From NCBI GenBank assembly GCA_963780185.1, contig CAWABA010000011.1, positions 128,001-192,000 of the forward strand: a stretch of DNA of 64,000 nt, given 5' to 3'. Positions 39,161 to 40,824 of this stretch are shown piece by piece. The notes below the pieces were generated by a model. The model was not told the DNA's origin. It made no database searches and was given only the letters and a program-made list of their open reading frames with translations. Source of the stretch: Candidatus Bathyarchaeota archaeon (GTDB taxonomy: Archaea > Thermoproteota > Bathyarchaeia > Bathyarchaeales > Bathycorpusculaceae). Every line of letters starts with the position of its first letter. Positions within the stretch are counted from its first letter, which is position 1. The translations under genes and the position numbers were made by a program.

Positions 39161-39445
39161 GTGAATACCGTGAACGTTCCTAAAGAGGTCAAAACTTACT
39201 GTCCAAAATGTAAAGCTCATCAAATTCACAGCGTAACGCTTTACAAGCCTGGAAAGCGAAGAGCCTTAGCTAAAGGCGAACGCCACCATGAACGAGAAAA
39301 ACAGGGTTATGGTGGACAAAAATATCCTTTGCAAAGAGAATTCGCTAAAACCACAAAAAAACAAACAATGCGCCTCAAATGCAAAGTCTGTAACTACATG
39401 AGGCACAAAGACGGTATCCGTCTAAGAAAACTGAACATACAATAG
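39161..39445 (+). CDS. rpl44e: 50S ribosomal protein L44e
   Basis: TYCPKC, GYGGQK, KTTKK, CKVC. Confidence 0.96.
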   Translation: MNTVNVPKEVKTYCPKCKAHQIHSVTLYKPGKRRALAKGERHHEREKQGYGGQKYPLQREFAKTTKKQTMRLKCKVCNYMRHKDGIRLRKLNIQ

Positions 39446-39465
39446 TTAATGGAGAGAAAAAAGTT

Positions 39466-39663
39466 ATGTCTGAATGGAGTAAACTTATCCCGAAACCGCG
39501 AAGCGTCTTCCTCAGAGTTAAATGCTCAAAATGCGGCAACGAACAATTAGTCTTCAGCAACGCAGTTAACAAAATAACCTGCAACGTATGCGGAGAAACA
39601 CTTGCCGAGCCCACTGGCGGAAGAGCAAAGATTAATGGTGACGTGCAAGCCGTTCTCGAGTAA
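39466..39663 (+). CDS. rps27e: 30S ribosomal protein S27e
   Basis: FLRVKCSKCGNEQ...CNVCG...PTGG. Confidence 0.96.
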   Translation: MSEWSKLIPKPRSVFLRVKCSKCGNEQLVFSNAVNKITCNVCGETLAEPTGGRAKINGDVQAVLE

Positions 39664-39678
39664 GGGATGACGAAATGA

Positions 39679-39889
39679 ATGGCTGAGCGTAAGCCCCAGT
39701 GGCCAAAAGCCGGCGACCTGGTTATCGCGACAGTTCAAACCGTCACGGATTATGGCGCTTACGCCGAACTTTATGAATACAATCAACGCAGCTTGCTTCA
39801 CGTCTCAAAAATCTCTTTCCTGCAGGCAAAACGTTGTGGCATGCATCGCAAAAGCAGGCGGGCAAGGCATTTTTAGAAGGGAAAAATAA
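39679..39889 (+). pseudogene. eif2a: Translation initiation factor aIF2-alpha, internally deleted remnant
   Basis: S1 N-terminus (WPKAGDLVIATV...YGAY..L.EY) for ~46 codons, joined out of frame to C-terminal QNVVACIAKAGGQGIFRREK*; canonical position between rps27e and nop10. Confidence 0.8.
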
Positions 39890-40057
39890 TTGGTTTGGCA
39901 ACTTCGAAAATGCGTAGACTGCAGCAAGTACACTCTAAAAAAAGACGTTTGTCCATACTGCGGCGGACCCGTTAGGATTCCGCATCCAGCAAAGTTTTCC
40001 CCAGACGATAAATACCTAAAGTACCGAATGGCAATGAAAAGGAGTAAAGAAGCATGA
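39890..40057 (+). CDS. nop10: H/ACA RNP protein Nop10 (not in the ORF track)
   Basis: TTG start; MVWQLRKCVDCSKYTLKKDVCPYCGGPVRIPHPAKFSPDDKYLKYR. Confidence 0.93.
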   Translation: MVWQLRKCVDCSKYTLKKDVCPYCGGPVRIPHPAKFSPDDKYLKYRMAMKRSKEA

Positions 40058-40824
40058 AAGAAACATACCTCAAACAGTTCGCTGAAATCCAGCCTAACAA
40101 CCCGATTCTCATCGAGGGTCTCCCTGGCTTGGGGCTTGTAGGCAAAATTGCTCTTCGCTACATGGTTAAACAGTTGAAACCCCAAAAAGTAGCCTACCTC
40201 TACTCACCCCACTTCCCCTACTTCGTCCTAGTTAACAAAAAAGGAAACGTTCGCCTCCTACGAGGAGTATTCTACTATCACAAAAACCCAAACGGAAACG
40301 ACTTAATCCTGTTCACCGGCGACAGCCAATCACAAACAATCGAAGGACAATACGAAATCGCCGACCAAATTCTCGCCTTCTCAGAAAAACACAACGTAAA
40401 AACAATCGCGACCATCGGCGGCTACCGAATGGAGCCAACAGAAAAACCCAAAGTCTTTATCGCAGCAACCTCTCAAGAAATCCTAGACAAAGCCCTTAAC
40501 GCAGGCGCAATACTTAGCACCGCGGGAAGCCCCATCGTGGGAACAGCGGGATTAATACTTGGCCTTGCAAAATTCAAAAAAATCGACGCACTCTGCTTAC
40601 TTGGCGAAACACGCGGCTACCTGCCTGACCCACTTTCGGCAAAAAGCGTGCTTGAAGTCTTAAAATCCACGTTCAACTTCGACTTGGACCTTAAGGGATT
40701 GGACGATGAAATTGCCCGGGCGGAAACAATGGTGGCTCGTCTCCAGCAGATCGAAGAGAAACGTGCGCTTGAAGCTGAACAAACACGAAAAGAAGACGAC
40801 AAAAAAACCACATATATTTCTTAA
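40054..40824 (+). CDS. Proteasome assembly chaperone PAC2 family
   Basis: LIEGLPGLGLVG, GDSQ, TIGGY, LLGET.GY.PDP. Confidence 0.92.
   Translation: MKETYLKQFAEIQPNNPILIEGLPGLGLVGKIALRYMVKQLKPQKVAYLYSPHFPYFVLVNKKGNVRLLRGVFYYHKNPNGNDLILFTGDSQSQTIEGQYEIADQILAFSEKHNVKTIATIGGYRMEPTEKPKVFIAATSQEILDKALNAGAILSTAGSPIVGTAGLILGLAKFKKIDALCLLGETRGYLPDPLSAKSVLEVLKSTFNFDLDLKGLDDEIARAETMVARLQQIEEKRALEAEQTRKEDDKKTTYIS

Follow-up and report, generated by a model that had tools for sequence, protein, structure and literature searches.

Introduction

The gene order L44e-S27e-aIF2-alpha-Nop10 is known as the LSIN cluster (Berthon et al. 2008, PMC2643942), and according to that paper a gene of COG2047, or the PAC2 family, follows Nop10 in Euryarchaea. 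A second group of described systems consists of gene pairs which overlap or abut and in which translation of the downstream gene depends on termination-reinitiation coupling (Huber et al. 2019, 2023). Reinitiation in Haloferax volcanii dropped to 40–60% when the distance was 13/14 nt and was close to zero at 22/23 nt, and for E. coli 15 nt from the end of the upstream gene were enough (both PMC10666635).

The DNA considered here, called the window in the following, is a stretch of 64,000 nucleotides from the genome of a Candidatus Bathyarchaeota archaeon (assembly GCA_963780185.1, contig CAWABA010000011.1, positions 128,001 to 192,000); the genome is designated G000. The window contains, on one strand and in the LSIN order, the genes for L44e, S27e, a vestigial aIF2-alpha and Nop10, followed by a gene of the PAC2 family. 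An earlier note on this DNA had described the aIF2-alpha gene as decayed and had concluded that the factor was lost or relocated in this lineage, which would imply delivery of initiator tRNA by aIF2-beta and aIF2-gamma alone, or reliance on leaderless initiation. The decay was borne out by comparison with 100 other genomes of the same genus; the conclusion that the function of aIF2-alpha was lost was refuted.

Methods

Criteria: A sequence was counted as aIF2-alpha when it passed the curated cut-off over its full length and had three domains (S1, helical and alpha-beta) and about 260 amino acids. A pseudogene or gene remnant was defined by homology to a gene in which the frame, or the greater part of the coding sequence, is gone, and by relaxed constraint.

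Tally: Gene content was tallied in 101 genomes of the genus (G000 included) from the positions of the PAC2-family gene and of the aIF2-alpha matches.

Results and Discussion

The remnant of aIF2-alpha in the window

The features of the cluster are listed in Table 1. From the ATG to the original TAA the remnant measures 211 nt, compared with about 783 nt in intact copies. Codons 1–46 of its open reading frame score 42.8 bits with NCBIfam NF003064, for profile positions 3–45 only (cut-off 252), and the Pfam S1 score is 21.3 (cut-off 22). A Pfam profile search of the stub gave no match to EIF_2_alpha, and a full-length aIF2-alpha match above the curated cut-off was not obtained. The frame is broken after about position 39815; the ancestral C-terminus, QNVVACIAKAGGQGIFRREK followed by the stop, is readable in another frame and aligns with the last 20 residues (243–262) of an intact paralogue encoded on contig C10 of the same genome, with 60% identity. 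To that copy the N-terminus of the stub is only 61% identical, and the stub is therefore an old paralogue, not an assembly chimera.

The unusual residues in the retained N-terminus, to which the earlier note had drawn attention, were confirmed. Among the 25 columns with a conservation of 90% or more across 121 intact copies, the 46 stub residues differ in four (E>K, D>Y, G>S, E>K), and at all four the replacement residue occurs in none of the 121. With about 570 of 783 nt gone, the frame broken and constraint relaxed, the 211-nt feature is what remains of the ancestral aIF2-alpha gene of the operon.

A frame of three codons, ATG ACG AAA TGA, is present in the spacer (39667–39678) and ends directly at the stub ATG. 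The spacer ATG of the relatives G078 and G060 is in frame with the stub and stands in for the lost ATG.

Table 1. Features of the gene cluster and of the aIF2-alpha remnant (positions in the window).
Feature	Position	Strand	Basis
Ribosomal protein L44e, first gene of the cluster	39161..39445	+	Pfam Ribosomal_L44, 87.8 bits
Ribosomal protein S27e; stop TAA 39661-39663	39466..39663	+	Pfam Ribosomal_S27e, 76.5 bits
Conserved 5' element of the stub: putative SD-like GGGATGA (39664-39670), spacer, original aIF2-alpha ATG (39679-39681), first 5-6 codons	39664..39695	+	Conservation in relatives
Retained N-terminal 46 codons of operon aIF2-alpha (first S1-domain strands), with four substitutions at conserved sites	39679..39816	+	NF003064; 61% identity to intact paralogue
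Present open reading frame of 65 codons from the original start; TAG 39874-39876, 13 nt before Nop10 start	39679..39876	+	
Junction and zone of the frame break; site of the internal deletion (about 570 nt)	39815..39830	+	Alignment to intact G100, to G051 and to G114
Last 20 aIF2-alpha codons and original stop TAA 39887-39889, ancestral frame, outside the present open reading frame	39827..39889	+	Alignment to paralogue
Conserved 3' element TTTTAGAAGGGAAAAATAA: putative SD-like AGAAGG (39875-39880), stops in two frames, original stop	39871..39889	+	
Nop10, TTG start directly 3' of the ancestral aIF2-alpha stop	39890..40057	+	Pfam Nop10p, 87 bits
PAC2-family protein; start overlaps Nop10 stop by 4 nt (ATGA)	40054..40824	+	Pfam PAC2, 150.6 bits

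Repeated shortening of the operon copy

The slot between S27e and Nop10 measures 795–812 nt in the 44 intact operons of the genus and 59–300 nt in 56 genomes, the window's included; no slot in the genus is shorter than 59 nt. The shortening seen in the window thus recurs among its relatives, with 56 stubs across the 101 genus genomes, and 56 of the 100 genomes other than G000 have at this place either a shortened slot or, in the case of G069, a pseudogene with seven stops. On a tree of L44e, S27e, Nop10 and PAC2 the short-slot state requires 11 changes, seven of which are forced by well-supported branches. By this count the operon copy was cut down on at least seven to 11 separate occasions within the genus.

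The genome of the window belongs to a short-slot clade of seven genomes with slots of 174 nt (G092), 206 nt (G115), 299 nt (G064), 300 nt (G096), 258 nt (G051), 228 nt (G114) and 226 nt (G000); the slot is intact in the sisters of this clade (G100, G109 and G094). When aligned to the intact gene of G100, the deletion of the type found in G051 joins two short direct repeats, CA[AG]AA..TGGT, and in G000 and G114 about 30 nt more are gone. These alignments show that internal deletions emptied the operon copy and that a short direct repeat was the site of one of them at least; automatic mapping of breakpoints onto intact genes was unstable for stubs of less than about 130 nt.

The operon copy of G069 (G069:C1:666213-667780, L107) is of full length, with seven stops and 43% identity, and the adjacent PAC2-family gene contains several stops too. 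Either this copy has just entered upon the same decay, or the stretch is rich in errors.

Start, frame and ends of the stubs

In 45 of the 56 stubs the frame which begins at the conserved start stays open as far as the original stop, and this stop is -1 to +2 nt away from the start of Nop10. Among the other 11, seven (including that of the window) are closed by a TAG 12–13 nt ahead of the Nop10 start; three more read through, and the last is of another kind. The stub frames have 14–94 codons, and the other two frames carry 0–13 stops. ATG serves as start codon in 51 of 56 stubs, and ATA or ACG stands in its place in the remaining five; a start motif of 17 nt is present with at most four substitutions in 53 of 56. 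When the stubs were grouped by length and likeness of the peptides, 21 of 24 classes were in frame (binomial p 6e-8 against a chance of 1/3), a value which has to be read with the reservation that the classes are the author's own, drawn by eye, and that kin are not independent.

In 19 close pairs, mismatches were counted at 31 of about 600 sites in the 5' 32 nt, at 11 of 361 in the 3' 19 nt and at 230 of 1733 in the interior. No position of the 5' element (0/32) differs between G000 and G114 or between G000 and G051, and the 3' element was found in all stubs listed except the divergent G098. Between G000 and G114 the Jukes-Cantor distance of the interior is 0.217, compared with dN of 0.005 and dS of 0.331 in the flanking genes, which likewise speaks for real decay; for close pairs in general the corresponding ranges are 0.05–0.32 (interior), 0.002–0.04 (flank dN) and 0.09–0.9 (flank dS). 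Since the interior is near-neutral and the ends are conserved, the peptide would appear to drift while start, frame and stop are held. The interior pN/pS is mostly 0.2–2.3 with a median of about 0.6, not 1, and some constraint on the peptide or on the RNA may act there. In the shortest stubs only about six N-terminal and about six C-terminal residues are left.

The 3' end of the 16S rRNA of G000 reads GGATCACCTCCT. The motif AGAAGG, which is placed 9 nt before the TTG of Nop10, agrees in five of six positions with AGGAGG, the complement of this 3' end, and GGGATGA is placed 8 nt before the stub ATG; from this we infer that both are Shine-Dalgarno-like motifs. The 3' element alone could be kept simply as the Shine-Dalgarno sequence of Nop10.

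A metatranscriptome contig of a relative (run X15, record 8) matches positions 39383–39667 with 19 differences and four gaps; it covers S27e and extends past it into sequence with the conserved start motif of the stub, which speaks weakly for a common transcript of S27e and the slot in that relative.

The Nop10 start and a possible role of the stubs

In outgroup operons Nop10 starts with ATG without exception (11/11). Within the genus, genomes with intact slot have TTG (28), GTG (14), ATG (1) or AAG (1), those with short slot TTG (49), ATG (5), GTG (2) or TGG (1); altogether TTG or GTG is found in 93 of 101 genomes. The move to weak Nop10 starts came before the loss of the operon aIF2-alpha. 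In 44 of 44 intact genus operons the stop of aIF2-alpha and the start of Nop10 are no more than 2 nt apart in either direction (-2 to +2 nt), and close co-directional spacing of stop and start, by overlap or with a few nt between, is a feature of 45 of 56 stubs as well as of these 44.

Termination-reinitiation coupling would appear to be the simplest account of this pattern. Nop10, with its weak TTG or GTG start sitting directly at the upstream stop, would be translated mainly by ribosomes which terminate on the upstream cistron and then reinitiate, and for this reason the stub would be unable to vanish; the PAC2-family gene would be tied in as well by its 4-nt overlap with Nop10. Selection would keep the Shine-Dalgarno sequence and start of the stub, hold its frame open and retain a stop close to the start of Nop10 or directly at it, and the peptide in between would be meaningless and free to drift. 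In the window itself, translation in the slipped frame would end 13 nt early, a spacing at which Haloferax reporters gave about half of the reinitiation, unless the slip is a consensus error of one base or a strain variant.

The remnant is a vestigial cistron, left over from replacement by a paralogue (see below), and we regard it as probable that it is kept for the coupled translation of Nop10. A more far-reaching version would hold the stub to be a selected "relay cistron", whose erosion was allowed only as long as terminating ribosomes still reached the weak Nop10 start, so that a once-essential gene persists as a nonsense frame of 14–94 codons; for this version we see about even chances.

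Plain neutral decay would require that the stub has no role and that its frame and ends are due to shared ancestry, recency and the Shine-Dalgarno sequence of Nop10 only. The near-neutral interior agrees with this, as do the 11 of 56 stubs which are out of frame or do not follow the rule, and the genomes are related, so that counts overstate independence. Yet the independent truncations (at least seven to 11) have led to some two dozen architectures, almost all of which are a multiple of three and have no internal stop, whereas the other two frames are interrupted up to 13 times. Moreover, the 5' Shine-Dalgarno sequence, ATG and first codons are found in all 56 stubs and would be useless if only the Shine-Dalgarno sequence of Nop10 counted, and the slot never falls below the minimum given above. 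Neutral decay is therefore judged unlikely.

The stub could also act by being translated but by a route other than reinitiation, namely by protecting the mRNA, by preventing polarity, or by melting a structure which masks the Nop10 start. The same signature of start, frame and late stop would be expected. However, in 53 of 56 stubs no more than 13 nt separate the stop from the start, a tighter clustering than protection alone needs, and folding of the 56 stubs revealed no stable or conserved structure (median z of -0.39 against mononucleotide shuffles); the segment from the Shine-Dalgarno sequence to the start was mostly unpaired, with a median unpaired probability of 0.62, and a masking RNA structure was dropped from consideration. 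Routes of this type appear quite improbable.

There is little to recommend the view that the stubs encode a functional micro-protein, such as half an S1 domain or a short peptide. Open frames of 14–94 codons do persist, and the interior pN/pS is often below 1, but the interiors are unrelated to each other, the shortest stubs are reduced to the few terminal residues mentioned, interior pN is 0.04–0.4 against a flank dN of 0.002–0.04, and the retained S1 part is substituted at invariant positions.

Frame state and assembly of the window

A public contig of 151 nt (run X3, depth 2.2) is identical to positions 39675–39814 of the window and continues with 39816–39826; since it jumps from 39814 to 39816, the C at 39815 is missing there. 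Without this C the stub of the window is in frame, with 69 codons to the original TAA, and the distance from the stop to the Nop10 start, 13 nt as assembled, becomes 0. In the closest relative, G114, whose PAC2-family protein is 99% identical, the slot is in frame with 70 codons. Of the public runs compared with positions 39300–40300, none matched in more than 16% of the sampled words, and the matching runs consist of contigs, not of source reads. The frameshift of the window may be genuine; it may also reflect variation between strains or an error in the consensus.

In three genomes of the genus the only full-length aIF2-alpha gene is interrupted by single-base indels (G114:C6, L186; G088:C21, L187; G086:C38). 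As the factor is near-universal, these interruptions are most simply explained as consensus errors of the assemblies, and the indels in G114 and G088 mean that frame states in these assemblies need caution; the one-base frame state of the window is affected by this too.

The indels give some ground for asking whether the whole remnant could be an artefact, the gene being intact in the cell and about 570 nt having been collapsed by the assembler. This is hardly credible: the slot is shortened or broken at the same place in 56 other genomes with many different breakpoints, the four substitutions in the retained codons never occur in intact copies, the divergence of the stub exceeds the flank dN about 40-fold, and up to the junction the public contig agrees with the window in all but one base. 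The assertion of real decay, made in the earlier note, is upheld by these comparisons.

An intact paralogue in the same genome

A Pfam search of G000 (2.75 Mb, 13 contigs, 93.5% complete) gave one full EIF_2_alpha match, on contig C10. The gene, named X here, is an open reading frame for 262 amino acids (L001 1141-1929) with matches to S1 (47.9 bits) and EIF_2_alpha (88.5 bits); its score of 261.2 bits on NF003064 is above the cut-off of 252, and it qualifies as aIF2-alpha by a full-length match. Residues 6–260 align with the solved aIF2-alpha structure 1yz6 over the full length (E 2e-55). With dN/dS (omega) of 0.03–0.08 against relatives, X is under strong purifying selection. By definition aIF2-alpha binds aIF2-gamma through its domain 3 and raises the affinity for Met-tRNAi; for X, the low omega and its standing as the only full aIF2-alpha in 51 of the 101 genus genomes speak for this indirectly. 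The subunits aIF2-beta (frame of 149 amino acids) and aIF2-gamma (431 amino acids), whose integrity had also been in question, are both single and uninterrupted in G000. Taken together, the searches indicate that X supplies the alpha subunit in the window's genome.

A lineage without aIF2-alpha, in which initiator tRNA is delivered by beta and gamma alone or initiation is mostly leaderless, is consequently refuted: the operon copy is indeed non-functional, but an intact and selected copy exists in the same genome, a finding which the earlier note itself had named as refuting its claim, 62 of 62 genus genomes with a completeness of 90% or more and a contamination of 5% or less match the 262-aa aIF2-alpha, and the six genomes without a full copy are only 52–75% complete. 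Of the alternative "lost or relocated" in the earlier note, the first part falls and the second comes near the truth; replacement by an old paralogue is the more exact description.

This follows from a tree of 121 intact aIF2-alpha copies, all from the genus except for 12 from other families of the order, which serve as root. The genus copies form two sister clades, one of operon copies (44 rows, SH-aLRT 89) and one of X (65 rows, SH-aLRT 100), and the stem branch of X is longer (0.33) than that of the operon clade (0.082). The X tree and the operon tree disagree in places, at weakly supported nodes. The tree indicates that an old duplication gave rise to X as a second aIF2-alpha paralogue. 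At 11 loci from other families of the order a single copy was found within a complete L44e-S27e-aIF2-alpha-Nop10-PAC2 cluster; two clusters are partial, L010, which starts at a contig end, with Nop10 and PAC2 only, and L024 with L44e and S27e only.

Both copies are present in 26 of the 101 genus genomes, the operon copy only in 18, X only in 51 and no full copy in six. The 51 include G085, where X is split over contig ends, as well as G086, G088 and G114, where X is interrupted, and G069, which retains the full-length operon copy with its stops.

Genome G060 (6% contamination) has two copies of X (G060:C9:18371-19156 and G060:C8:27505-28290) and may be a mixed bin. X-like copies with 74–80% identity were found in four more genera (G126, G192, G136, G163, G145) among 81 genomes from 70 genera of the family, and a second, operon-like copy is present in three of these four genera as well. 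The duplication may thus be older than the genus.

A conserved small protein encoded next to X

Directly after X in G000 is an uncharacterised open reading frame for 114 amino acids (L001 1934-2278, contig C10), and a conserved 114-aa frame follows 4–10 nt past the X stop in 41 of 65 X loci. Searches gave no Pfam or NCBIfam family and no usable match in the Atlas. The AF2 model (pLDDT 77.3) has a beta3-alpha-beta4 layout, for which Foldseek returned nothing at E <=0.001. A likeness to the N-lobe of protein kinases was considered; with a best VIA Z of 6.3 it was below a meaningful level and was not assigned. The protein may act together with the alpha subunit of the X type as its partner, and the occurrence of two intact alpha subunits in 26 of 101 genomes, with X accompanied by this conserved protein, may point to a second, specialised form of aIF2.

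Significance

An archaeon lacking the alpha subunit is ruled out, as the gene for it lies outside the LSIN cluster, which matters when the absence of a marker gene in these metagenome-assembled genomes is interpreted. The data document duplication of aIF2-alpha and reciprocal loss across a large, uncultured genus of soil and peat archaea. A search of titles and abstracts of the open-access literature found no report of a duplication of aIF2-alpha in Bathyarchaeia or of a decayed gene whose remnant is retained for coupling. Comparative evidence from many independent natural deletions would suggest that coupling can dictate the path by which a dispensable operon gene decays. If this is true, the genus represents a natural deletion series with at least seven independent origins, which maps the minimal requirements of archaeal termination-reinitiation; these would be a Shine-Dalgarno sequence and a start, a frame that stays open, some 19 nt of 3' context, and a stop no more than about 13 nt away.

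Comparison with known systems

The window agrees with the LSIN cluster in gene order, in orientation and in the PAC2-family gene after Nop10, as described by Berthon et al. (2008). It differs in the "I" member, which is reduced to 211 nt here and to 59–300 nt in 56 of the 101 genus genomes, the working copy being at another locus. X resembles canonical aIF2-alpha (1yz6, 3aev, 2aho) in its full-length alignment over residues 6–260 and in having both S1 and EIF_2_alpha, and differs by its location outside the LSIN cluster and its long stem; the stub of the window, compared with the same proteins, has kept only profile positions 3–45 and the last 20 residues.

With the coupled gene pairs of Huber et al. 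the stubs have in common the co-directional arrangement, a distance of -2 to +2 nt from stop to start and an SD-like motif in the 3' end of the upstream gene. The shortest natural stubs retain about the last 19 nt, which agrees with the 15 nt quoted for E. coli, and the stubs which stop early end 12–13 nt before Nop10, within the range in which H. volcanii still reinitiates. They differ from those pairs in that the upstream cistron no longer encodes a protein of its own; in the window, the distance is 13 nt and there is no overlap.

A further parallel is offered by leader peptides. In prokaryotes, upstream or leader open reading frames set the translation of the gene downstream. The stubs would resemble them as short translated frames whose product is irrelevant and which end at the start of the gene to be regulated. 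They would differ in origin, having arisen by the repeated erosion of an essential gene after its replacement by a paralogue, and not as dedicated leaders.
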